A stretch of 64,000 nt of DNA from a virus: IMG/VR virus record IMGVR_UViG_3300044825_001015, positions 40,845 through 104,844 of that record; one strand, 5' to 3'. The position numbers were made by a program, and so were the translations under genes. This document shows positions 40,610 through 63,423 of this stretch, piece by piece. A model generated the notes under the pieces. The model did not search any database. It worked only from the letters and a program-made list of their open reading frames with translations, and was not told where the DNA came from. The stretch's first letter is position 1, and each line of letters opens with the position of its first letter.

Positions 40610-40975
40610 ATGGAACTCTATGATGAATTAACAGAAGAAGAAAAAGCATATCATGATGCAATGGTTTCTATTGCAGAAAGATTTGGCCCGTTTGACCAGG
40701 GAACATCAAGTATTTGGGTTGGATATGAAGGCCCAGAAGACAATGAAGATGCTCAAATTGGTGTTAAGTGTGCTAATTGCTCCCTGCATATTGAGAGAGA
40801 AGACGGTCAATTAGGATGTGCTATCCTTTCTTATCTAGTTCATCCAGAAGCAAAGTGCCGCTTGGCAGCAATTCCAGATGGCTATGTAAATGCATCAATG
40901 GATGATGAAGATGATGATCCAAATGACGACGATGATATGATGGGCAAATTCTGGGGCGGATCTTTTCTTAAATGA
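40610..40975 (+). CDS. Acidic 4-Cys protein with C-terminal KFWGGSFL motif
   Basis: CANC..C..C; leaderless after TGGTATAAT. Confidence 0.6.
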   Translation: MELYDELTEEEKAYHDAMVSIAERFGPFDQGTSSIWVGYEGPEDNEDAQIGVKCANCSLHIEREDGQLGCAILSYLVHPEAKCRLAAIPDGYVNASMDDEDDDPNDDDDMMGKFWGGSFLK

Positions 40976-52424: not shown

Positions 52425-52799
52425 TTGTCCACATAGGGCTATATACATGTGGATAAGTTGTGTATAACTTCATACAAATTGTGAATAAAGATATACAACT
52501 ATTAAATTAATTGTGTAGGTGTAATGGGCCAAGATACACCCCCCATCGTAATGTCAAGAAAAATGGGGCATTTTTATAATATATTTACCAAATATGACCC
52601 CATATTATTTAATTATGCCAAATTCTGTAAAATTCCATGAAAAAATTAGCCCCTTCGTAATATGCCCAAAGATATCCACAATCTGTGGATAAAATGTGGG
52701 CGGGATATGTAATGTGTATCCTATATTTATCATATATAGTATATGTAAAGGATTAGATCCAATTACCCCCCTGTGGATAACTTGTGGAAAATATCCACA
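52425..52799. promoter_or_regulatory. Cluster of DnaA boxes
   Basis: TTGTCCACA 52425; TGTGGATAA 52448, 52684, 52772; TGTGTATAA 52459; TGTGAATAA 52480; ATATCCACA 52672, 52791; TGTGGAAAA 52783. Confidence 0.75.
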
Positions 52800-52912
52800 A
52801 ATTTCCATGATTTTTTTATGTCCGTCGTAATGTCTAATTAATTTTTTATATCGGCGCTATCTCCGAAATTTCTAAAAATTTCCATGATTTTTTATAAGCC
52901 GTCGTAATATGC

Positions 52913-52960
52913 TTGACAAATTTTATTGTCGGTGCCGCCACCGAAATCGGTGGCTGTCAA
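52913..52960. repeat. 48-bp dyad element, copy 1
   Basis: TTGACA-N10-TCGGTG-N4-CACCGA-N10-TGTCAA. Confidence 0.85.
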
Positions 52961-52961
52961 G

Positions 52962-53210
52962 TCACAACATGAATGCAATCCAATTGTCAATCCAATCCTG
53001 CTGGGTCCAATTGTCAATATTGGCATATCGCTCTGGGGTGAACTGCTTGCGAATCTCCTCCGCCTCAGGGTACTTGGAAGGAATAGAGAATCCCCAAGGT
53101 GTGAAGTACCCATCCTCTGCGATAGCCTGCTTCACCTGGGCGGTGAAGTTGGGCTTATCAAACTCAAGGATACCCATGTCAATCGCTGCAACTGCTTCAT
53201 CAAATGTCAT
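52962..53210 (-). CDS. Hypothetical protein (leaderless)
   Basis: ATG 6 nt after the -10 of promoter 53217-53238. Confidence 0.6.
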   Translation of the reverse strand: MTFDEAVAAIDMGILEFDKPNFTAQVKQAIAEDGYFTPWGFSIPSKYPEAEEIRKQFTPERYANIDNWTQQDWIDNWIAFML

Positions 53211-53216
53211 ATCCAT

Positions 53217-53238
53217 ACTATACACCCGCCCTCTGACA
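53217..53238 (-). promoter_or_regulatory. PafBC/RecA-NDp-type promoter
   Basis: TGTCAG-AGGGCGGGTG-TATAGT. Confidence 0.75.
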
Positions 53239-53396
53239 TTAGTCAAGAAAAGTGGTCTGGCTGCTAGGAATTTCAAGGCTCCTGCTTTAGTTAACGACTA
53301 GGGCGTCCCCTGATAGCCGCACCAGACCTTCTACCTTACCTACTCCAATATTGTATCACTTCAACTTTTTGTACGTCAAGCCCTGGCTTGATGGGT

Positions 53397-53753
53397 CTAC
53401 TCAGCCCCTCGCTGAACGAACGACGGAGCATATCGGCTTGTATAGTCTTCGATAGTTCCTCGGGCAGTTGTACCACCAGCCGCAAATCCACGACCAGGGT
53501 TGTAGTCGGGTACTTCTTCATAGTCATTCACCACCTCATGCATGATACGAGAGGCCATCTCACCAATCACGGGATCGCCAATGCCATAGCGCCAGTCAAT
53601 CTCGTTGAGCATGAACCATCCAATCGCAACCTTGTGCAACATAGCCGCAGGATATCCACCAGCAGTCTTTACTAGATTAGCAAACTGATATGGATTATAG
53701 AGCCTGTTATTTGCTGCCTCCACAAATGCTTTCGCTGCCTTTTCCTCTATCAT
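53397..53753 (-). CDS. Hypothetical protein
   Basis: GAAAGGA SD. Confidence 0.6.
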   Translation of the reverse strand: MIEEKAAKAFVEAANNRLYNPYQFANLVKTAGGYPAAMLHKVAIGWFMLNEIDWRYGIGDPVIGEMASRIMHEVVNDYEEVPDYNPGRGFAAGGTTARGTIEDYTSRYAPSFVQRGAE

Positions 53754-53779
53754 GATATCCTTTCGATGGGGAGTCTACA

Positions 53780-54142
53780 TTATACACGAACGAGCGGGTC
53801 TTTGCTAGTGGCAATGGAAGAAGGAGCCTTTACTCCCCCCTCGCATGTGCAGTACATCATGTGGTAATGACAATCAAAACATGTAACAAACTCTATAACG
53901 TATCCCTCTTTACTACGACCCTTGAGTTTCTTAGGCTTGCGAACAGCAGTCATAGGTGGAACATGTGGACGGATAACAGCAGGCTCTACCTCAGGTAGAC
54001 CATCGTCACGCTTTCCTGTACGTCCTTCTAGTTTCCCGCCCTCTTCTTGATAATCCTTCAGAGCAGTCATCATCTCAGCAGTAAAGCGACCACGCTCTCC
54101 TACTGTGAATCCCAGACTACGCAGATACTCACGCTTGTCCAT
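53780..54142 (-). CDS. Lsr2-like DNA-binding-domain protein with C-terminal Cys cluster
   Basis: REYLRSLGFTVGERGRFTAE resembles the Lsr2 C-terminal domain with its RGR AT-hook. Confidence 0.7.
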   Translation of the reverse strand: MDKREYLRSLGFTVGERGRFTAEMMTALKDYQEEGGKLEGRTGKRDDGLPEVEPAVIRPHVPPMTAVRKPKKLKGRSKEGYVIEFVTCFDCHYHMMYCTCEGGVKAPSSIATSKDPLVRV

Positions 54143-56379
54143 TCCATACTCCGTTCTCTGTCATGATCTCTACTTGTACCTCTAGGTTGTATTCAGCCTG
54201 AGTATAGAATCTGAAAGCAACATCAACCATTCTAAGCAGGGCAGCATCATTCAACATAGCCGCCTCGTTCTCGTATGTCCTAAGATGGTCATGATCTTCT
54301 GAGTGTAGTTCCCACACATACCCGCCAGGACCACAGTCAATCTCTATAAACTTTAGCATTAGATATCCATCCTTAGTTGTCCATCGACCTGATTAGCCCA
54401 CTCCGCTTCCTCGCGCTCGTAGTCTGCCCACAACTCATCTGGCTCTGAGCAATCCCAGAAGAGCGCATCCCACAGACGCAACTCATCGCACATTGAGCGA
54501 CCTGTCACCACCGCACCGTTAGGCAACTCATACTTACGATCAAACACAGTCTCATCAGAAAACTCGTAGTCCCAGTTATCTTGCATGTCTGCCCAACCTA
54601 GGATGTATGGATCGGAGTCACGCTGTAACTCATCGAATATCTCCTGCACGCGCAACTGAATGTCATGCGGAATCGGCGGGTAGAAGTTAGCAGTAAGGTG
54701 CATGGTGATATCTGTCATTAGTCCTCCACAGGATCGACACTAACGGAATCTTGGATATAGCCGCCCTCAACAAGAATGGCGTCGGAATGATTATACTTGC
54801 CATTCCAGAAGTTCGCAAGAACATCGTCAAGCGTGTCTGCCTCTACGAACAAGTCCCACCAGTCCTCGGTTTGATAACTAATCTTATACTTAGGCATAAG
54901 GAACCTCCAATGGAAGAACGAACCAGTCACCATCACCATGATTAGATCCATAGTCAATGGCTTCATCCCTAGAAACGAACGGTCCATGAAGAGTATGACC
55001 ATCGAAAGCATTACCAAATGCAACTATGTATTTCACAGTTCCTCCCCATTCTCATCCTGATAGATAATTCCATAGGAATCACCAAAGTCCTCATACACCC
55101 AATCTTCGATATACGCCAGCACTTCCTCTAGGGTAGGCTCATATGGCTCGGCATTATCATCACCACGGCTGCCATAATCGTTCATAGCCTGCAATGATTC
55201 TACAATCTGGACAACATCATAGGTAACAGTCTTGATAGCGTTGATACGTTCAGGAAGAGACATTATTACCCACCATCCTACCCGACACCACTATCCCAGG
55301 AGCAGGCCAGGTATCGACAATGTATCCAAGAAGTCTAACTAGAGACTCATCAAGTGCTGCCGTGATAGGTGTATCATCATCTGGCGCTTCCCAGCGATCA
55401 GGTAGCCTATCGTCAGAAATAAAGATATTACCATCTGGGAAGTAGGCGGCGGTATCAGATTCTACCCCCCACCTCTGAGTATCTGTGTCATAGAATACAA
55501 CATAGTGCAACTGCATGATTACTCCTTATCCTGCGTAGGGCTGGGTCCAGTCCCAGGCATACTCCTGGAGAATCTCTTCTACCCTAGCAATAGCCTCGCT
55601 CTCATCATCAGCGTCAATGATGAAACTAACATTCTGAACGTCTACTGAAATATCCATCAGTCCTCCATGAAGTTGTAGTAGTAGCGAGTATAGCCAATCG
55701 GCTCGGAAGAGTCAAGAGGGTCAAGGGTGGGATGGGAAGAATACTGCAACGTCCCCTTCACTCCATCACTCTTACGCTTGACAATACACAGATCATAGAA
55801 GAATCCTAGAACCTCATACTGCTCTAGCATCTGATCTTTGGTAAGCATATTACTGGCTAGCATCAGTCCTCTGCCTCCTCATATGTCATGAGATACAAAC
55901 TCTGCTCTCTTACCACCCACACCAAACCCTCGCGGGTGTTGGTGTTGAGATATTCTAGTGCATCCTCATAGGTCCAGTCAATAGCATCCAGAATTTCATA
56001 GTGCCTATCATCATCTACCTCATCAGAGGATAGCCAATTCATATCAGCAATAAACTGATCCCACTCCAACTCAAATCCATAGTCGTGAGCCAATTCGATA
56101 ACTAGGCACATGAATTCTAGGTTTGATCTATGGCTACCGTCAATGTAGCAACCAGTCTCAGTCTTCATCTGGGATTACATCCTCCACGGTGGGAACAATA
56201 GAAATGTTGTTCATGATCTCGTTATACAACTCAGGATCACGACCACTAGCAAGGTCGTCAGCCAACTGCTCCAACTCCTCGCGGGTCATGTCATCATATG
56301 CCTCATACTCATACTCAAAATCCATGAAATGACCAGTTCCCTCATAGATGAGTTCTACTGAGAATGTGATAGTAGCCAT
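54129..56379 (-). CDS. Operon of small acidic hypothetical early proteins (54129-54359, 54359-54718, 54718-54897, 55033-55263, 55250-55516, 55657-55863, 55863-56168, 56158-56379)
   Basis: Overlapping stop/start codons and GGAG SDs. Confidence 0.55.
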
Positions 56380-56648
56380 TCTAACTCCAGTCGTCTGGGC
56401 GGAATCCGCCTGATGTAAGCCAATTATCCAATGCAAAGAAGGCATCTGTCAAGAAATCCATAGCCTCTTCTGCATCAACTTCCAAAGTTCCCCACTCCTC
56501 CCAACGTGCAAGCGCGACGCGGATAGAAGAAAGAGTTTCATTCGGGTCCATATTCTCTCCTTTCTAGGTATATCTAGTAAAGCCTATGCGAGAGTATATG
56601 TCAAGCAGGTTTTCTGTGATTTCCGTGATTTTTTCGTAACCGTCGTAA

Positions 56649-56696
56649 TTGACATTAGGTAGATTCGGTGCTGCCACCGATTTGCGGATTTGTCAA
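56649..56696. repeat. 48-bp dyad element, copy 2
   Basis: TTGACA-N10-TCGGTG-CTGC-CACCGA-N10-TGTCAA. Confidence 0.85.
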
Positions 56697-56697
56697 G

Positions 56698-56765
56698 CCC
56701 CACCCCAGAGAATCGAACTCTGCCCGACAGGTTTTGGAGGCCCGTCTGCGCCCAGCGCGGGTGGA
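56698..56765 (-). tRNA. trnW: Atypical 68-nt tRNA-Trp (CCA) with a minimal D arm
   Basis: TCCACCC/GGGTGGG, D arm GCGC-TGG-GCGC, loop CT-CCA-AA, T arm CAGAG-TTCGATT-CTCTG, discriminator G. Confidence 0.7.
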
Positions 56766-56768
56766 TCG

Positions 56769-56870
56769 GAGCAGTTTATCCATTGTCCAATCTAGGATTC
56801 CCTCATGCTCAGGAGGTTTTCGGCCCCATGCCTGCCGATGGCAGGGCAGTTTTACATCATGCCCAGGATG
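56769..56870 (-). ncRNA. Two tandem H-type pseudoknot motifs (56844-56870 and 56769-56816)
   Basis: CATC-CTGGGCAT-GATG-TAAAAC-TGCCC and CCTC-CTGAGCAT-GAGG-..-TAAAC-TGCTC. Confidence 0.7.
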
Positions 56871-56875
56871 TTTGA

Positions 56876-57880
56876 TTACGCGAAGGCGATTTCCTTGACC
56901 GCCTTCAGGATGCGACCCTTCTCCGCATTGGTGACAGGATCGAAACCGCTAGCGGCTGCTGCAACATTCTCAGCACCCCGCTCACCACGGCCCTTGCGGA
57001 ACCAGTCCAGACGCTCCGTGAGAGCATTGAACGCACCCCACGCGGTGCCTGCGATCATGTTAGTGGTGTCGGAAGAGTAAATCTCCTCCAGCAGATCGAC
57101 CTTAGTCTCCCACTTCTTGACAGCACCCTTGGCATCCTTGTCGGGACGCGGGTAGACAGCCTCAACAATGGCATCAAACTTAGCCTTGGTAATCTCCTTG
57201 GCAATAAGAGCCTGAGCCTCCTTATCGAAGGTGTCAAGGTACTGATTGGCGAGAGAAAGAGCCTCGCGTGCAGCCTGAACCTTACCACCCACGGTCTGCG
57301 TGTGGCGAATCTTGAAGGACTGCTTCACACCCTGAAGAGCCATGTTCAGAGTGTTCTGGCACACCACGCGAACGGGAGTGATGGAAGCCTGCACAGCAGT
57401 AGAACCATCATGCGAGGTGTGGACGAGAAGGTAGGACTTCACAACATCCGACACACCATTGGGGTCAAGGACAGTCTCACGCTCCAGCGCAAGCGAACCG
57501 AACACGACACGACCCTGGCGAATAGAGCCAGCAGTCTCCCAACGACCACCGTCAAGGAGGGCGTCACCAAAGTTGAAAAGATCCTCGTTCTGAAGAACGT
57601 GGTAGCGCTCACCAACGGTAGCAAGAACGTCAGTACCCTGGTCGAATGGGTTGTCACGAAGGACCATGTAGGAAGGCGTGATCACATTGTACGCCTTGGG
57701 GTAAGGAACGGCCTCCAGGCGAACGTTCCAGTTGGACAGGTAAGCCGCATCCAGCATCTCCTGGGTGGACTTCTCCTCAAAGAACACGGTCCCAAGACCA
57801 TGCCAAGCGGGTTCGCGGAAAGAAGCAAAAGACTGCTTCTCGCCATCCCGACTAACCTCTACTGCGTGTGGCATATTCAT
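56876..57880 (-). CDS. DUF932 (phage/plasmid TIGR03299-like) protein
   Basis: PAWHGLG, WETAG, SHDGS, TPVRVVCQNT, RHT, GTAWGAFNALTE. Confidence 0.9.
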   Translation of the reverse strand: MNMPHAVEVSRDGEKQSFASFREPAWHGLGTVFFEEKSTQEMLDAAYLSNWNVRLEAVPYPKAYNVITPSYMVLRDNPFDQGTDVLATVGERYHVLQNEDLFNFGDALLDGGRWETAGSIRQGRVVFGSLALERETVLDPNGVSDVVKSYLLVHTSHDGSTAVQASITPVRVVCQNTLNMALQGVKQSFKIRHTQTVGGKVQAAREALSLANQYLDTFDKEAQALIAKEITKAKFDAIVEAVYPRPDKDAKGAVKKWETKVDLLEEIYSSDTTNMIAGTAWGAFNALTERLDWFRKGRGERGAENVAAAASGFDPVTNAEKGRILKAVKEIAFA

Positions 57881-57908
57881 CTCCTTAGTTGATCGAACTT
57901 ATGGAACT

Positions 57909-57930
57909 ACTATACACCTGGGGACTGACA
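57909..57930 (-). promoter_or_regulatory. PafBC/RecA-NDp-type promoter
   Basis: TGTCAG-TCCCCAGGTG-TATAGT. Confidence 0.75.
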
Positions 57931-57980
57931 CTCGCAAGACTTTTTCTAAAAAATCCGTGAAAAATATTCTCTCGTCGTAA

Positions 57981-58013
57981 TTGACTTTACTAGGATTTCG
58001 GGGCAGGCACCGA
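57981..58013. repeat. Dyad element, copy 3 (partial)
   Basis: TTGACT-N11-TCGGGG-CAGG-CACCGA. Confidence 0.7.
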
Positions 58014-58018
58014 AAATA

Positions 58019-58046
58019 TGAGCAGTTTTTCGTCATGCTCAGGACG
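58019..58046 (-). ncRNA. H-type pseudoknot motif
   Basis: CGTC-CTGAGCAT-GACG-AAAAAC-TGCTCA. Confidence 0.7.
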
Positions 58047-58147
58047 CCATTAATGGTTGCAATGCTGGGGAATATAGGCGCTATTGGAAGTCCATGAGTC
58101 CCTAGGTTGACTTTCTCTTCCCTCACCCTATGTTGCCATACTCTGCG

Positions 58148-58220
58148 TACCCCCAACGGGATTCGAACCCGTGCTACCGCCTTGAAAGGGCGGCGTCCTT
58201 GGCCTCTAGACGATGGGGGC
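58148..58220 (-). tRNA. trnE: tRNA-Glu (UUC)
   Basis: GCCCCCA/TGGGGGT, CCGCC-CTTTCAA-GGCGG. Confidence 0.92.
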
Positions 58221-58228
58221 TATCTGGT

Positions 58229-58654
58229 CTAACTCTCAGACCAGTCAATCTCCATGCGATCCTCTGAGAAGTCTGCCTCTACATCAGCAGAGTAGTAGTG
58301 CGACTCAAGGCTAGCACTCAGATCATTCTCAAGATTATCCATGTCGTAGTTCAGAGGAACACTAACGGTCCCGCTGAATGTGACGGTCACAGTAACATCG
58401 TAGTCCTTGCTGATGCTAAGACCAAAGATATCGACAAGGCTCTGAGAAATCTCCTCGTCAATGTAGTCATACTGCTCCTTGACGTACTGCTCAAGGTTGT
58501 CGATCATCATCTGACGATCATGTGCCCTGGCCTGCCAGAAATCACGATCAGCAGTCATACTAGCAAGGGCGTTGTTCAGTTGATCAATCTTAGTCTCCAA
58601 CTCCTGCATGGTGGGCGGGAATGGATGAATGTCAGTCATGCTAGGGTCAATCAT
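58229..58654 (-). CDS. Hypothetical coiled-coil/acidic protein
   Basis: GGAGG SD; host-like codon usage. Confidence 0.65.
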   Translation of the reverse strand: MIDPSMTDIHPFPPTMQELETKIDQLNNALASMTADRDFWQARAHDRQMMIDNLEQYVKEQYDYIDEEISQSLVDIFGLSISKDYDVTVTVTFSGTVSVPLNYDMDNLENDLSASLESHYYSADVEADFSEDRMEIDWSES

Positions 58655-58655
58655 G

Positions 58656-59045
58656 TTACACCTCCATCAATGTCTTAGCGTACTTATTGATGAACTCGTT
58701 CAGGGAGAACGTGACAATGATATCAGTCAGCACTCCTGACTTCCAATCATAGTCATACAGAGTTACGGTCTTAAATGCAAAGTCAAAGACAGGAACCTTA
58801 TGCTCGTTGTCTGCAAGGTAGTTCACAGTAACACCCCAGCCAAGATCACCCTGCCATGCATCACCAACCAACTGCGAGATGATAATACGATTTGCATAAG
58901 CCTGATCGTCAATGCGTCCAGCATCCTGCACATGGTCAAGAGCATTAGCAAACCTAGCAAGCATACCCTCGCCAGCCCAATGTCCGTAGATGAAGATGGT
59001 GTTGCCATCGACCTGTCGAAGTCCGAAATTAGCGCGGTCGCCCAT
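58656..59045 (-). CDS. Hypothetical protein (MGDRANFG...)
   Basis: GAAAGG SD before ATG 59045; promoter at 59075-59096. Confidence 0.65.
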   Translation of the reverse strand: MGDRANFGLRQVDGNTIFIYGHWAGEGMLARFANALDHVQDAGRIDDQAYANRIIISQLVGDAWQGDLGWGVTVNYLADNEHKVPVFDFAFKTVTLYDYDWKSGVLTDIIVTFSLNEFINKYAKTLMEV

Positions 59046-59074
59046 GGTAGTGCCTTTCTGTAGTAGGTAGGGAA

Positions 59075-59096
59075 ACTCTATCATGTAGGTCTGACA
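59075..59096 (-). promoter_or_regulatory. PafBC/RecA-NDp-type promoter that also has a TTGACA -35
   Basis: TTGACAAC-TGTCAG-ACCTACATGA-TAGAGT. Confidence 0.75.
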
Positions 59097-59105
59097 GTTG
59101 TCAAG

Positions 59106-59188
59106 TGCCCCAAGCGGGAGTCGAACCCGCACTCCGTTATGGAACTTGATTTTGAGTCAAGCGTGTCTGCCAATTCCACCATCGGGGC
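59106..59188 (-). tRNA. trnL: tRNA-Leu (CAA)
   Basis: GCCCCGA/TTGGGGC, CTTGA-CTCAAAA-TCAAG, long variable arm. Confidence 0.9.
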
Positions 59189-59191
59189 GTG

Positions 59192-59222
59192 TGGGCAGTT
59201 TTAGCGAACATGCCCAGGTTCG
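59192..59222 (-). ncRNA. H-type pseudoknot motif directly 5' of tRNA-Leu
   Basis: CGAAC-CTGGGCAT-GTTCG-CTAAAAC-TGCCCA. Confidence 0.7.
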
Positions 59223-59232
59223 TCCCAACTAA

Positions 59233-59608
59233 TCAGCGACCAGCGGGGATGCCATGCTTCAGAGTCTCCAACGCGGGGGTGGAGTCAATGAACTTGCCAT
59301 TCTGACGAGTGACAATACGAGTCTGGACACCATAACGGGTGTTCCAAGTCTCAAGGTAGGTGAACTTAGGGGTCTTGCTCTTCTTGCTTGCCATGTTTTC
59401 TCCTTTACTAGTAAACGGGTAGTGCATCAACTACGGCAACAATCTTACCATTTGCCGCTCTTGCAATCAAGTCTGCGCGGGACTGATTATGAATCGTGAT
59501 ATCAAAATGCGTATCATCATAGATATCAAATTCCACGCCATGCTTGATTGCTTCAAATACCCCCGCGCCCGTGGATGAGCGGGAGGGAGTACGGATAGTA
59601 GCAATCAT
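59233..59608 (-). CDS. Two small hypothetical genes (59233-59394, 59408-59608)
   Basis: SDs present; downstream of promoter 59635-59656. Confidence 0.55.
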
Positions 59609-59634
59609 GTTACCCTCTTTTCTGTTGTAGTACT

Positions 59635-59656
59635 ACTATAGCCTAGGGGTCAGACA
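59635..59656 (-). promoter_or_regulatory. PafBC/RecA-NDp-type promoter (variant)
   Basis: TGTCTG-ACCCCTAGGC-TATAGT. Confidence 0.7.
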
Positions 59657-59707
59657 CTCACAAGAAAAAATTTCTATGATTTCTGTGATTTTTCTTAAAA
59701 CTCGTAA

Positions 59708-59756
59708 TTGACATATGTGAGAATCGGTGCTGGCACCGCCCTGACAGATTTGTCAA
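59708..59756. repeat. Dyad element, copy 4
   Basis: TTGACA-N10-TCGGTG-CTGG-CACCGC-N11-TGTCAA. Confidence 0.85.
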
Positions 59757-59901
59757 GGAGATACGCTCTAGTATTCCTGACTTTCTACTTGGTCAAGGAT
59801 ATCGCAGTATAGCGAACCTAGAATGTATCCTTCATTCATCAAGTCCCGCAGGCACATGAGTACCTGATCCCAATCAGCACGCGGCATCTCTACCTTTACC
59901 A

Positions 59902-60132
59902 CTACACACCCGCCAATCTCTTACGCTCTACACCCGTCATGCCACCATAGACATGAGGCTCGAAATCCTCGTTGCGAATCGCAAATGCGAGGCAATCCTG
60001 CACAACGCTGCACGTTGCACAAATCGACTTAGCCTTTTCGATGCGCGAGGCAACACCTGAGAGAAACAGGTTGCTATCCGCATCCTTGCACGCTGCCCTA
60101 TCCTGCCACATTCTGATCCTTCTTCCACTCAC
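59902..60132 (-). CDS. whiB: WhiB-family transcription factor (early region)
   Basis: WQDRAAC..F..AKSICATCSV..C..HVYGGMTGVER. Confidence 0.88.
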   Translation of the reverse strand: MSGRRIRMWQDRAACKDADSNLFLSGVASRIEKAKSICATCSVVQDCLAFAIRNEDFEPHVYGGMTGVERKRLAGV

Positions 60133-60521
60133 GCGCTTCCTTGCGCTTGATTAGTCTAGTCTGCATCTTTCGCGGTGCTGACGGGCAGCAGCCGTAGTAG
60201 CAATTCATCCGATGCTTGCCGACATTACGGCGGGATCGAATCAAAAAGGCACCTCCTCATAGCGCACCCCATCGACAATCAGAGTGCCGTCATCCAGATA
60301 CATGCACCGCGCATAGTCGAATGCATGGTCGCCCAGCATGTAGTAGTTATCCAGCCAAGCCTTCTCAAACTCCACCGTGGTCATCATGCTACCACCTCCA
60401 CAATCTCAACAGTCTGACGGGGCGATGCCCAAAAGTCTCGGATAGTCTCAGCACCCTCGCGGGTGGCGACCGTGGAAAAGAACTGCCCATCTACGAATAC
60501 CTTGTATGTTGTCATGGCTTC

Positions 60522-60848
60522 ACCTTATCAGAGGGGTCTGACACCCAAGGGTTGGGGTCAAGGTCAAGGGTGGCCTCCAAGCGGAGGAAGTTCTCATACA
60601 GTTCTTCTAGGTTCATGCGTATACCTTATCATCTAGGTCTGACAGGCAATCACAGTCATATGAAACCTTGAGGTAGTCCTCAAAGGCTTCCACGGTCATG
60701 ATGCCCTTGTATTCATGGCACAGTCCGCACCACTTGGCATCCAGGGAAATCTCGTTATCGCAAAAGCAGCAAACGAGGTGGGAATGGAGAGTGTTGTTCA
60801 TTTCTAGCCTTTCTTTCTATGCCCTAAGGCTATCATGAGGGACTGACA
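60522..60848 (-). promoter_or_regulatory. Three tandem PafBC/RecA-NDp-type promoters (60522-60543, 60623-60644, 60827-60848)
   Basis: TGTCAG-N10-TAAGGT twice, TGTCAG-N10-TAGCCT once; each heads a tiny ORF. Confidence 0.72.
60613..60801 (-). CDS. Small Zn-finger protein
   Basis: CCFC..CGLC; GAAAGG SD. Confidence 0.55.
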   Translation of the reverse strand: MNNTLHSHLVCCFCDNEISLDAKWCGLCHEYKGIMTVEAFEDYLKVSYDCDCLSDLDDKVYA

Positions 60849-60914
60849 TTCACCGAATCCAAAATATATACAAATCGGACAACATTTCTGTGATGTATTT
60901 CACTTCGTCGTAAC

Positions 60915-60963
60915 TTGACAAATTCAAATTTCGGTGGCGGCCCCGAATTTCACTTGTTGTCAA
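60915..60963. repeat. Dyad element, copy 5
   Basis: TTGACA-N10-TCGGTG-GCGG-CCCCGA-N11-TGTCAA. Confidence 0.85.
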
Positions 60964-61144
60964 GTACCTTGTATATGACATAGATCACGGCGACTACGGG
61001 AAGTACGAGGCATGACATTCCCAGCACTAACATAGCGGTACTAAAAATGTCAAGCGCCTGCGAGTCTACAATATTATGCTCTGCCATTTCACACCCCCAC
61101 AAAGTCGCGCAGCATCTCCCGAAAGTTCTCTAGCGTGATATCGT

Positions 61145-61690
61145 TCATGCTGCACCCCCTCGCACGATAATCCAGATGAGAGCCTGCGCGGTGCGCGGTG
61201 TGATATCAAACTCCGCAGCGACAGTAGTGACAGCCTCAGAAAGTTCGCGGTATTGCGTCTTATTGGGCGAGTCAGTATCCATGCCAGCGGCTCGCATCAT
61301 CCATACGTCAATGACAACCGCGTCAGTATCGCCAGCGATAGCGCGAGCGAAAGCGTTAGTCTTTAGTCCGTTCAACGCATCAAATCCCGCGACCATGGAA
61401 GCCTGAGCCATGCGGAGATTATTGCCCAAGCCCTTAGGGGTCTGACCAAGCGAGAACGCGATAGCCTTAGCGACGTTAGTGGACCAACGCTCACGCGGCG
61501 AGAATGCTGCGACGATGGATGCGCCTACCTCTAGGGTAGTGTCAAGGTTACGGGCGACTTCCTCTGCAACCTCCTCCGCATCACGGTACCAGACGGATGC
61601 TTGCTCCATCTGCGCGAGGGTGGCGGTCATGATAATGGAACGGAAGGTGTCAGTAGCGGTAGGGGCGAGAGTATCTGTCATCGTTGTCAT
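61145..61690 (-). CDS. Helix-hairpin-helix DNA-glycosylase-like protein (leaderless)
   Basis: WY..AAFSPR..W..N; GLKT.AF; VVIDVWM; AQALIW. Confidence 0.6.
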   Translation of the reverse strand: MTTMTDTLAPTATDTFRSIIMTATLAQMEQASVWYRDAEEVAEEVARNLDTTLEVGASIVAAFSPRERWSTNVAKAIAFSLGQTPKGLGNNLRMAQASMVAGFDALNGLKTNAFARAIAGDTDAVVIDVWMMRAAGMDTDSPNKTQYRELSEAVTTVAAEFDITPRTAQALIWIIVRGGAA

Positions 61691-61696
61691 GGAATG

Positions 61697-61907
61697 ATCC
61701 TAGCACTAGGGTCCGACATTGGGAAGGGGTAATTAGTCATTTTCGGTAACGAAACGGTTACGATGCTTAGGCTTGCGAGAATACTTAGCCTTATTCCGAT
61801 GGGGCGCGGCAATATTAGAGCGGCGCAACTCCAAGGTACGCTGAATCTCATCACGGGTACGCTTACGATTCTTGATCATGGGAAAATACTAGCACACCCC
61901 TCCGACA
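61697..61907 (-). promoter_or_regulatory. Two PafBC/RecA-NDp-type promoters (61697-61718, 61886-61907)
   Basis: TGTCGG-N10-TAGGAT and TGTCGG-N10-TAGTAT; an ATG lies 6 nt downstream of each. Confidence 0.78.
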
Positions 61908-61947
61908 ATGGGAAGAAATCTCAGGAAAAATATTTTCGTGTCGTAAC

Positions 61948-61995
61948 TTGACAAACTTGGATATCGGTGGCGGCACCGAATTTAGGATTTGTCAA
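61948..61995. repeat. Dyad element, copy 6
   Basis: TTGACA-N10-TCGGTG-GCGG-CACCGA-N10-TGTCAA. Confidence 0.85.
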
Positions 61996-62350
61996 GTCTA
62001 TTTCTAATAGAGTTAGCAAGAATCTCTAGCGAGTATTCTATATCCTCTAGAATTTCAAAGTCTGCTGGATTCTCTGCAGATGCCCACATGCGCTTGCAAC
62101 GTGTGAGCAATTCTTGAATGTCATTCCATTGCATTGTGAGATTTATATCGAATGGACGACGCTCTATCACCTTGACGTTACTCACCGATCCACCTCGCAA
62201 CTGCCGCGCAGAAATCTTCAAACGTTGTCTCCTTATCGAATCCAAACGTGAAGCAGTCTACCTCGTTGTTTCCATTGTCATAGACATTGACAGTATGCGA
62301 ACCGTTCCATACATACGTCCATCCTGAGCGGGAGTCATGAAGTTCTAGCA

Positions 62351-62623
62351 TTACTCCACCGCCCGAAAGTTCTCCATGAACTGTGCAAAGTAGATCAGCG
62401 GAACGTACGGGTACACCTCATGCGAGTAGAGTGCGGCAAACTCTGGCAGAGGCTCAGTAACCCACTCATCATTCTTGAAGAATGCCAGTTCGACAGAATG
62501 CGGGAAGCGTGCGTATGCTCCATCTCCGATTGCAATGGATACCTCATCGGCCATGGGGTGAGCGATCTTGGCCCTGGCGTTGATGTAGTGCCTATCACCA
62601 TATGTTTCAGCGCGGGTAATCAT
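62351..62623 (-). CDS. Hypothetical protein
   Basis: SVELA..VYPYVP; SD present. Confidence 0.55.
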   Translation of the reverse strand: MITRAETYGDRHYINARAKIAHPMADEVSIAIGDGAYARFPHSVELAFFKNDEWVTEPLPEFAALYSHEVYPYVPLIYFAQFMENFRAVE

Positions 62624-62748
62624 TAGAAGCCTTCCTCTATTCCACCAACGATTGCCATAGCAGTAAGGATACCGCTAATAATGACGAATGACAAGACATG
62701 CTGTGCGAATGTTCTCATGATTCCTCCCTCTCGCATGTGCATGATCCA

Positions 62749-62770
62749 AAGTTACCACGGGCGTCTGACA
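62749..62770 (-). promoter_or_regulatory. PafBC/RecA-NDp-type promoter
   Basis: TGTCAG-ACGCCCGTGG-TAACTT; ATG 6 nt downstream. Confidence 0.7.
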
Positions 62771-62806
62771 GTAGAAGCCTGCCACACTTAGCGCATGTGC
62801 GGAACA

Positions 62807-63088
62807 CTAGAATTCCAATCCCATCGAAGCCAGTCCTGTGATCAGTTGGGCCTGGATCACAGGGTCATTCTTGTCCTCAGGCTTGAGCCACTTTACCATG
62901 GCAGACCCACGGGACTGCATGGTATTACCCTGCGTGTCGGTTACGAGGAACCAGTCATCCTCTAGCGGTTCGATGATGAACCACCGAGTATGGAGCATCC
63001 CCTTAGCGTTCTCTCCAAGGATACCCTCCACAAATGGTGGGCACTCTCGCATGGGAGTGGTGACGATACGATCTACTGATTCGATCAT
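62807..63088 (-). CDS. Hypothetical protein
   Basis: GAAAGG SD before MIESVD. Confidence 0.5.
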   Translation of the reverse strand: MIESVDRIVTTPMRECPPFVEGILGENAKGMLHTRWFIIEPLEDDWFLVTDTQGNTMQSRGSAMVKWLKPEDKNDPVIQAQLITGLASMGLEF

Positions 63089-63214
63089 GGCCTGACCGCC
63101 TTTCCATTGACGAGGACCCATTCCCCGCAGCCATAGCAAATCCAACGAGGGGCGGCGGTACCAAGACGGATGCTGCCCTTGCAGTTCTCACACGGTGTCT
63201 TTCTCATGTCTCCG

Positions 63215-63236
63215 ACTCTACACTAGGGGGCCGACA
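63215..63236 (-). promoter_or_regulatory. PafBC/RecA-NDp-type promoter
   Basis: TGTCGG-CCCCCTAGTG-TAGAGT; ATG 7 nt downstream. Confidence 0.75.
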
Positions 63237-63313
63237 ATAGTCAAATCCAAAATGCATACAAATCGGACATTTTCAAAGTTTTTTTTCTGGGAAAAAATCC
63301 AAGGTTTCGTAAC

Positions 63314-63345
63314 TTGACATTTTATGATTTCGGTGGCGGCACCGA
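63314..63345. repeat. Dyad element, copy 7 (partial)
   Basis: TTGACA-N10-TCGGTG-GCGG-CACCGA. Confidence 0.8.
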
Positions 63346-63423
63346 AAAATTCCATGAAATTTCTGTGACAGTAGTAATACCGTCGTAAGACTTTTTTATA
63401 TCTAATTATTCGGTCACAGGTGT

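Follow-up and report, generated by a model that had tools for sequence, protein, structure and literature searches.

Several described systems place a structured RNA at the end of a message or just ahead of a tRNA. At the 3' ends of MALAT1 and MEN-beta, with mascRNA, and in the tRNA punctuation of mitochondrial transcripts, RNase P acts at a downstream tRNA or tRNA-like unit and so forms the 3' end of the upstream RNA. Bacterial stabiliser hairpins, for example the repetitive extragenic palindromic (REP) element in the malE-malF spacer, stop 3' exonucleases and prolong the life of upstream segments of polycistronic mRNAs. The pseudoknots that stimulate frameshifting or read-through share a spacing geometry of 5-9 nt, and in those of the beet western yellows virus (BWYV) type the AAAC linker forms minor-groove triples. 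Small ribozymes of other kinds are common in phages. In plant, fungal and insect RNA viruses the coremin motif mechanically blocks Xrn1 and ribosomes (PMC6546385, PMC10520033, PMC10321173). Coremin requires a short hairpin on its 5' side whose loop is closed by C-G (or U-A), and mutants of its spacer show that the 5' part is tolerant while AAACU is essential (PMC6546385); loops of the CCGAAA type lost resistance (PMC10520033). Here we describe a small H-type RNA pseudoknot that occurs four times in the right-hand 64 kb of a virus record that is 104,844 bp long and carries direct terminal repeats (IMG/VR record IMGVR_UViG_3300044825_001015, positions 40,845 to 104,844), a stretch that we refer to throughout as the window. 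The element is a real, strongly covarying and widespread phage RNA pseudoknot that is absent from RNA catalogues.

The pseudoknot and its covariation

Reading of the minus strand, together with a scripted check, shows that four copies in the window, PK1 to PK4 (Table 1), share one compact H-type design. All four had been recognised, at the same places and with the same fold, in a first-pass annotation made from the sequence alone. Stem 1 has 4-5 bp, is different in sequence in every copy and encloses an 8-nt loop, CUGRGCAU. Loop bases 3-7 pair with a downstream 5-mer to give stem 2 (GGGCA/UGCCC twice and GAGCA/UGCUC twice), and the linker that precedes this 5-mer ends in AAAC in all four. The PK4 linker is 27 nt long and contains a small hairpin of its own. 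The copies are dispersed, lying 54 to about 1,200 nt apart. Nested-fold prediction cannot represent a pseudoknot and yields stem 2 or stem 1 alone. When the window was scored with a covariance model built from copies of other phages there was no fifth copy, the next-best match in the 64 kb reaching 11.1 bits (E = 0.14).

An exact pattern for the constant parts of the element, scanned over IMG/VR, matched at least 120 loci. The motif is far beyond chance, as the true pattern gave at least 104 matches with fixed spacing while a reversed control pattern gave three in the whole of IMG/VR. Among the 139 matches listed, 104 have the minimal spacing, 135 have a stem 1 of at least 3 bp and 138 have a perfectly complementary stem 2. 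When 101 distinct copies are aligned without gaps, the fourth pair of stem 1, on which the filter made no demand, forms in 85 of them and by six pair types, and one stem 2 position is A-U in 91 and G-C in 10 without a single mismatch. Pairing occupies 91.7% of cells in the true register, against 25-39% when the partners are slid by 1-3 columns. A covariance model made from the IMG/VR copies found 167 matches in 100 other loci, and the extra matches carry compensatory changes at three further stem 2 pairs, plus G-U intermediates. Compensatory variants are thus known at four of the five stem 2 pairs, the fifth being invariant. The claim of the first-pass annotation that the stem differences among the window copies are compensatory agrees with this wider covariation.

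Constant features are the closing C-G pair, the CU linker and AAAC, while the one-base junction varies freely. The closing pair is found in all 101 aligned copies, where the search pattern imposes it, and also in 43 of 43 variants found by the model; in these 43 the loop starts with CU in 42 and with CC in one, and its second position is never G. AAAC followed by U is constant, with length changes, and the whole inserted hairpin, falling exclusively 5' of AAACU. Given the covariation of both stems, the constant linkers and the model matches, the H-type pseudoknot is well supported. Its predicted parts are a stem 1 of 4-5 bp with free sequence and a constant C-G closing pair, a 2-nt linker CU, a stem 2 of 5 bp and a variable junction of 1 nt, and the A-rich linker ending in AAAC would occupy the minor groove of stem 1.

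We also observed a subclass of knots (L006:11345-11378, L030:2947-2967, L036:4519-4552, L074:6205-6238 and L087:908-928, each given as locus and positions) in which the loop is kept and a purine and G replace CU where the linker meets stem 2, giving an A-G apposition at the junction pair. This subclass may be a structural or specificity variant.

Rfam 15 holds no matching family. The whole window searched at the gathering score, and permissive scans of 3 kb and 56 nt at E up to 10, returned tRNAs and noise alone, which is the outcome of the Rfam check that had been proposed with the first-pass annotation. Literature searches by topic and by motif strings found no description of the knot in phages.

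Carriers of the element

Named phages were surveyed with short BLAST queries in three stem 1 versions. The carriers include actinobacterial phages (of Mycobacterium and Arthrobacter), phages of Firmicutes (Bacillus, Geobacillus, Lactobacillus and gut Clostridia), of cyanobacteria (Nostoc, Microcystis and Synechococcus) and of Rhodobacterales (Paracoccus, Lentibacter and Roseobacter, the last being SIO1), as well as crAss-like gut phages. A near-identity DNA search with the 3-kb region gave no match to named phages. Of the 120 matches listed for species-representative genomes of bacteria and archaea, about 35 have both stems, and these come from Saccharibacteria, Chloroflexota, Clostridia, Bacteroidota, Akkermansia, a cyanobacterium and a Methanobrevibacter bin. 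The other listed genome matches, about 70%, lack stem 1 and were set aside as chance or coding matches. Matches of the phiEcoM-GJ1 type, in phages of E. coli, Yersinia and Shigella, were likewise rejected because stem 1 is broken and they lie inside an annotated coding sequence. Among the matches listed there is no convincing copy in gamma- or beta-proteobacterial phages or genomes, which may be a real absence or an effect of sampling; phages of these two groups make up a large share of the phage collection.

Position relative to genes and tRNAs

Placement was analysed in 157 copies. The spacer between the stop codon and stem 1 was counted in 154 copies, from the nearest upstream stop that ends an open frame of 50 or more codons; its lengths peak at 5-9 nt (55 of 154) and fall below 5 nt in two copies alone. 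Independent GenBank annotation agrees, the spacers being 6 nt for gp85 of Mycobacterium phage Labelle, 6 nt for the holin gene of Geobacillus phage GR1, whose copy carries a compensated stem 2 variant, and 10 nt for a gene of cyanophage S-RIM4. In a greedy gene map of 136 copies, 122 have a gene on their own strand that ends no more than 150 nt upstream and 101 have one that starts no more than 150 nt downstream, with 30 copies having an upstream gene only and nine a downstream gene only. The knot keeps a much tighter distance to the stop codon upstream than to the start downstream, and the downstream ribosome-binding site is often 5-25 nt away. In five loci (L004, L033, L036, L087 and L115) the knot is separated from the stop codon by one and the same 15-nt spacer, which starts with TAG and five G; its recurrence suggests a larger conserved unit in one phage lineage.

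A same-strand tRNA lies 3-13 nt downstream in 12 of the 157 copies (about 8%), PK1 and PK4 included, while a tRNA ending within 15 nt upstream is seen in none. A position directly before a tRNA is therefore a general and directional property of a minority of copies. Eight of the 12 also lie 6-11 nt past a stop codon, giving an arrangement of open reading frame (ORF), knot and tRNA, and in ten of the 12 the tail between knot and tRNA is 3-8 nt. Across all copies the first base after the knot is A in 71%, the following eight bases are G-poor, and the downstream 30 nt have less structure than control windows (mean minimum free energy -2.0 versus -3.2 kcal/mol). The first-pass annotation had proposed that RNase P, in cleaving the tRNA, leaves a knot-capped and exonuclease-resistant message, in the manner of MALAT1 and mascRNA. 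The layout on which that proposal was built proves to be general and one-sided; as an account of the element the proposal is too narrow, since about 90% of copies are not beside a tRNA and lie instead between a stop codon and the ribosome-binding site of the next gene, or at the end of a transcription unit.

A proposed gene-end barrier and its alternatives

The tight spacing to the upstream stop codon, the excess of copies with an upstream gene only and the one-sided arrangement with tRNAs all suggest a role for the upstream RNA. Our preferred, though tentative, reading is that the knot is a gene-end barrier that defines and protects the 3' ends of upstream mRNAs by a presumed block to nucleases, whose direction is likewise presumed. 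The knot would sit as near to the stop codon as a terminating ribosome permits, and so would stay folded during translation of the upstream gene. By the geometry of the ribosomal helicase, 5 nt is the distance at which a ribosome with the stop codon in its A site need not open a helix, and the agreement of the observed 5-nt floor with this geometry suggests that the knot can remain folded while the upstream gene is being translated. Once the transcript has been cut or terminated downstream, 3'-to-5' exonucleases would trim it back and halt at the knot, and the 3' end of the upstream message would thereby be defined and stabilised. The downstream end could be supplied by RNase P at an adjoining tRNA, by an endonuclease in the unstructured, G-poor tail or by termination at a boundary hairpin. 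Where a tRNA adjoins the knot, the upstream fragment released by RNase P would retain the knot and, beyond it, a very short tail; PNPase, RNase II and RNase R can engage only on longer tails. A barrier of this kind is close to the idea of the first-pass annotation and far broader than the tRNA case.

Several observations weigh against this reading. PK2 follows a tRNA trailer and not an ORF, and the tRNA-Glu of the window follows an ORF without a knot, so the knot is neither necessary at ORF ends nor confined to them. About three quarters of the copies also have a close same-strand gene downstream, and a role directed downstream is conceivable. The nearest-neighbour energies are modest, -2.3 to -3.2 kcal/mol for the stem 1 hairpin and -5.4 to -7.5 kcal/mol for the stem 2 duplex. 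In addition coremin, the sole look-alike that has been studied experimentally, blocks enzymes that move 5' to 3' (PMC6546385, PMC10520033).

The main rival is a coremin-like 5'-to-3' roadblock, which might protect or insulate the following gene or tRNA, stopping RNase J, 5'-end-dependent scanning by RNase E, Rho, or sliding and read-through ribosomes; we regard this as unlikely, but as a possibility to be taken seriously. The likeness to coremin is detailed, comprising the C-G closing pair, the pyrimidine at the first loop base and the 5'-tolerant spacer followed by AAACU, with insertions 5' of AAACU alone (PMC6546385). Moreover, coremin variants with loops of 6-8 nt or with a Watson-Crick stem 2 stall Xrn1, and coremin also halts scanning ribosomes and stimulates frameshifting (PMC10520033, PMC10321173). 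The downstream genes found close to 101 of 136 copies, with their nearby ribosome-binding sites, would suit such a role, but the spacing to the upstream stop codon is far tighter than that to the downstream start, and terminal-only copies exceed leader-only copies by 30 to 9. Nor is the second hairpin that coremin requires downstream enriched after the knots, and a knot 3-8 nt before a tRNA would be removed by RNase P and so could not protect the mature tRNA. A roadblock specific to RNase J cannot be general, because the motif occurs in three Bacteroidota and Akkermansia assemblies from which RNase J is absent, and in crAss-like phages.

A signal to the terminating ribosome, acting at its mRNA entry channel to alter termination, read-through or frameshifting or to block sliding and re-initiation, seems to us improbable. 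The spacer of 5-9 nt with its 5-nt floor has the geometry of frameshift and read-through pseudoknots (PMC10321173), and the fold resembles the luteoviral frameshift knots. However, slippery heptamers are not enriched (9 of 157 copies), in-frame extensions past the stop are mostly shorter than 10 codons, further stop codons are often found in the spacer, and PK2 and the copies before tRNAs have no downstream reading frame, so that a stimulator of frameshifting or read-through is disfavoured even though the spacing fits. We give slightly less credence still to a binding site for a small molecule or protein, riboswitch- or operator-like, that controls the downstream gene. The topology and A-rich tail recall the preQ1-I aptamer, the CU and AAAC linker bases are strictly conserved across phages of many phyla, and the subclass with two changed junction bases is reminiscent of specificity variants of riboswitches. 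Against such a site, no riboswitch model matched, the 56-nt scan included (for preQ1-I, RF00522, there was no match at E up to 10 in the 3-kb or 56-nt scans), the junction loop is a single variable base, the neighbouring genes have no common function, and copies precede tRNAs and sit at the ends of units. The hosts span many phyla and no shared phage protein turned up, although no systematic search for one was made. Least probable of all, and in our judgement very remote, is a tiny self-cleaving ribozyme by which polycistronic phage RNA would be severed at the borders between genes. The fold is knotted, has unpaired bases that are constant and does occupy processing-type positions, before tRNAs and between cistrons, yet at 27-30 nt the element is far smaller than any known self-cleaving class, no Rfam ribozyme model matched, and apart from the A at +1 there is no conserved candidate cleavage site. 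A type III toxin-antitoxin RNA (ToxI-like), of which the first-pass annotation had thought the knots might be mimics, was rejected. The copies are dispersed and form no tandem arrays, and the six neighbouring ORFs scanned against Pfam gave DUF932 and sub-threshold matches alone, with no toxin-like neighbour.

Gene context of the four copies

The knots of the window close three early transcription units, each just ahead of the next promoter, as each knot is found at the end of a unit, with a promoter-like site or the repeated module of hairpin, repeats and promoter directly behind it. On the minus strand the order in the first unit is 65-aa ORF, PK1, tRNA-Leu and promoter-like site. The second has two ORFs, tRNA-Glu, a spacer, PK2, a hairpin, short repeats and a promoter-like site. 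The third has DUF932, PK3, a dyad, PK4, the tRNA-Trp-like gene, a hairpin, repeats and a promoter-like site.

Table 1. Pseudoknot copies and neighbouring features in the window (positions of the 64-kb stretch)
Feature	Coordinates	Strand	Parts or position	Score or source
PK1	59193..59222	-	stem 1 59222-59218 with 59209-59205; loop 59217-59210; linker 59204-59198; stem 2 3' strand 59197-59193	25.8 bits, E 4e-6
PK2	58020..58046	-	stem 1 58046-58043 with 58034-58031; loop 58042-58035; linker 58030-58025; stem 2 3' strand 58024-58020	45.8 bits
PK3	56844..56871	-	stem 1 56871-56867 with 56858-56854; loop 56866-56859; linker 56853-56849; stem 2 3' strand 56848-56844	39.3 bits
PK4	56769..56816	-	stem 1 56816-56813 with 56804-56801; loop 56812-56805; linker 56800-56774; stem 2 3' strand 56773-56769	hairpin part 18.8 bits, tail 9.7 bits
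65-aa ORF	59233..59430	-	stop codon precedes PK1; no Pfam family	
tRNA-Leu (CAA)	59105..59188	-	directly after PK1	
Promoter-like site	59104-59075	-	immediately after tRNA-Leu	
tRNA-Glu (UUC)	58147..58220	-	8 nt past stop of 141-aa ORF, no knot between (junction 58221-58231)	
Hairpin after PK2	57996..58015	-	part of repeated boundary module	
DUF932 gene, 334 aa	56876..57880	-	stop codon precedes PK3	
Short dyad	56833..56843	-	directly after PK3	
tRNA-Trp(CCA)-like gene	56697..56765	-	69 nt, directly after PK4	ARAGORN

PK1 lies 10 nt 3' of the TGA of the 65-aa ORF. Between its end at 59193 and the start of tRNA-Leu at 59188 there are 4 nt, or 3 nt when the conserved +1 A is taken as part of the knot, and between the end of PK4 at 56769 and the start of the tRNA-Trp-like gene at 56765 there are 3 nt. 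The first-pass annotation had given 3 nt for both, a figure that stands for PK4 and, for PK1, depends on how that A is counted. It had also described the remaining copies as following a stop codon or preceding a dyad, and this is what we find. PK3 begins 4-5 nt past the DUF932 stop codon, TAA. PK2 is separated from tRNA-Glu by 100 nt, with no ORF end before it and with the boundary hairpin 4 nt further on, and both PK2 and PK3 are followed by a dyad. The junction between the 141-aa ORF and tRNA-Glu is a natural knot-free internal control for a role at mRNA-tRNA boundaries.

The tRNA-Trp-like gene is atypical, its cloverleaf having a D-stem of 4 bp and a D-loop of just 3 nt, the acceptor, anticodon and T arms being normal; called by ARAGORN, it scores below the Rfam gathering score for tRNA. 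The DUF932 protein is 55-57% identical to proteins of the terminal-repeat region in Streptomyces phages.

A boundary module recurs six to seven times among small early genes on the minus strand at 52600-63400 of the window (examples are 57959-58021, 56607-56681, 59689-59740, 60885-60947, 61918-61980 and 63284-63346). It has a G+C-rich hairpin, a conserved GTCAA(T/G)TTACGACG-like box, then one or two ATCA(C/T)GGAAAT-like boxes, and a promoter-like site, and it looks like a cassette of terminator, operator and promoter. Within this one phage genome, coding strand and composition switch sharply at about 52.3-52.6 kb, from about 37% GC before to about 50% GC and minus-strand genes after. The GC-richer arm contains all four of the knots together with three tRNAs, and eight further tRNAs, on the plus strand at 34-42 kb, have no knot.

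Significance

If the knot fixes mRNA ends, it would be among the most widespread cis-acting RNA elements of phages. Phage tRNA genes would then have a second reason to exist, as processing signals, and a part of 27 nt would be available as a portable means of setting message stability in many bacteria. Culturable carriers exist among the phages of M. smegmatis (Labelle), Geobacillus (GR1), Lactobacillus (phig1e), Roseobacter (SIO1) and Arthrobacter (Molivia), which makes the question directly testable. The detailed likeness to coremin also prompts one to ask if knots of this type had a single origin or several among DNA phages and RNA viruses.

Comparison with known systems

The frameshift knot of BWYV and other luteoviruses shares with the phage knot the compact H-type form, a first linker of 1-2 nt and a one-base junction (PMC10321173), and also the A-rich linker ending in AAAC and the position 5-9 nt from the A-site codon. 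In the phage knot, however, the upstream codon is a stop and not a slippery heptamer, there is no extended frame, and some copies precede tRNAs. The preQ1-I riboswitch (RF00522) is similar in size, in H-type topology and in its A-rich 3' linker, but the phage knot has in its junction loop one variable base in place of the ligand-specifying C, and it follows stop codons and is not placed upstream of queuosine genes. Like the REP hairpins, the knot is a structured element just after a cistron and a putative stabiliser, although it is a sequence-conserved pseudoknot common to phages of many phyla and not a host-specific palindrome. With MALAT1 and mascRNA it shares a candidate protective structure immediately 5' of a tRNA, in an order that is never reversed. 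It differs in that the phage tRNAs look like true decoding tRNAs, in that the fold is a small pseudoknot and not a triple helix of U-rich and A-rich strands capturing a tail, and in the small fraction of copies, about 8%, that adjoin a tRNA.

The comparison with coremin, or xrRNA-C, is the closest. In both, a C-G pair closes a short hairpin whose loop opens with a pyrimidine; both have a spacer that tolerates changes or insertions at its 5' end and then reads AAACU, and both pair the loop with the spacer; some coremin viruses even place coremin a few nt past a stop codon. Position 2 of the loop is U in the knot, whereas coremin needs G there (YGAD, or YGNNAD in longer loops), and stem 2 of the knot has five Watson-Crick pairs and is not a non-canonical or 3-bp interaction. 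A second hairpin of at least 4 bp within 0-4 nt, which coremin needs for stalling of Xrn1, follows 18 of 153 knots (12%) against 101 of 603 control windows (17%). The carriers, moreover, are DNA phages whose bacterial hosts have no Xrn1. As both the G at loop position 2 and the downstream hairpin fail, we reject membership of the coremin family, and it is plausible by analogy that the phage knot works like coremin without belonging to it. We offer as a conjecture, one that we ourselves consider rather doubtful, that the gene-end knot shared by DNA phages of many bacterial phyla is a prokaryotic counterpart, and possibly a relative, of coremin; with phage tRNA genes serving as RNase P signals, it would make up a bacterial system, punctuated by tRNAs, in which mRNA 3' ends are both made and capped.

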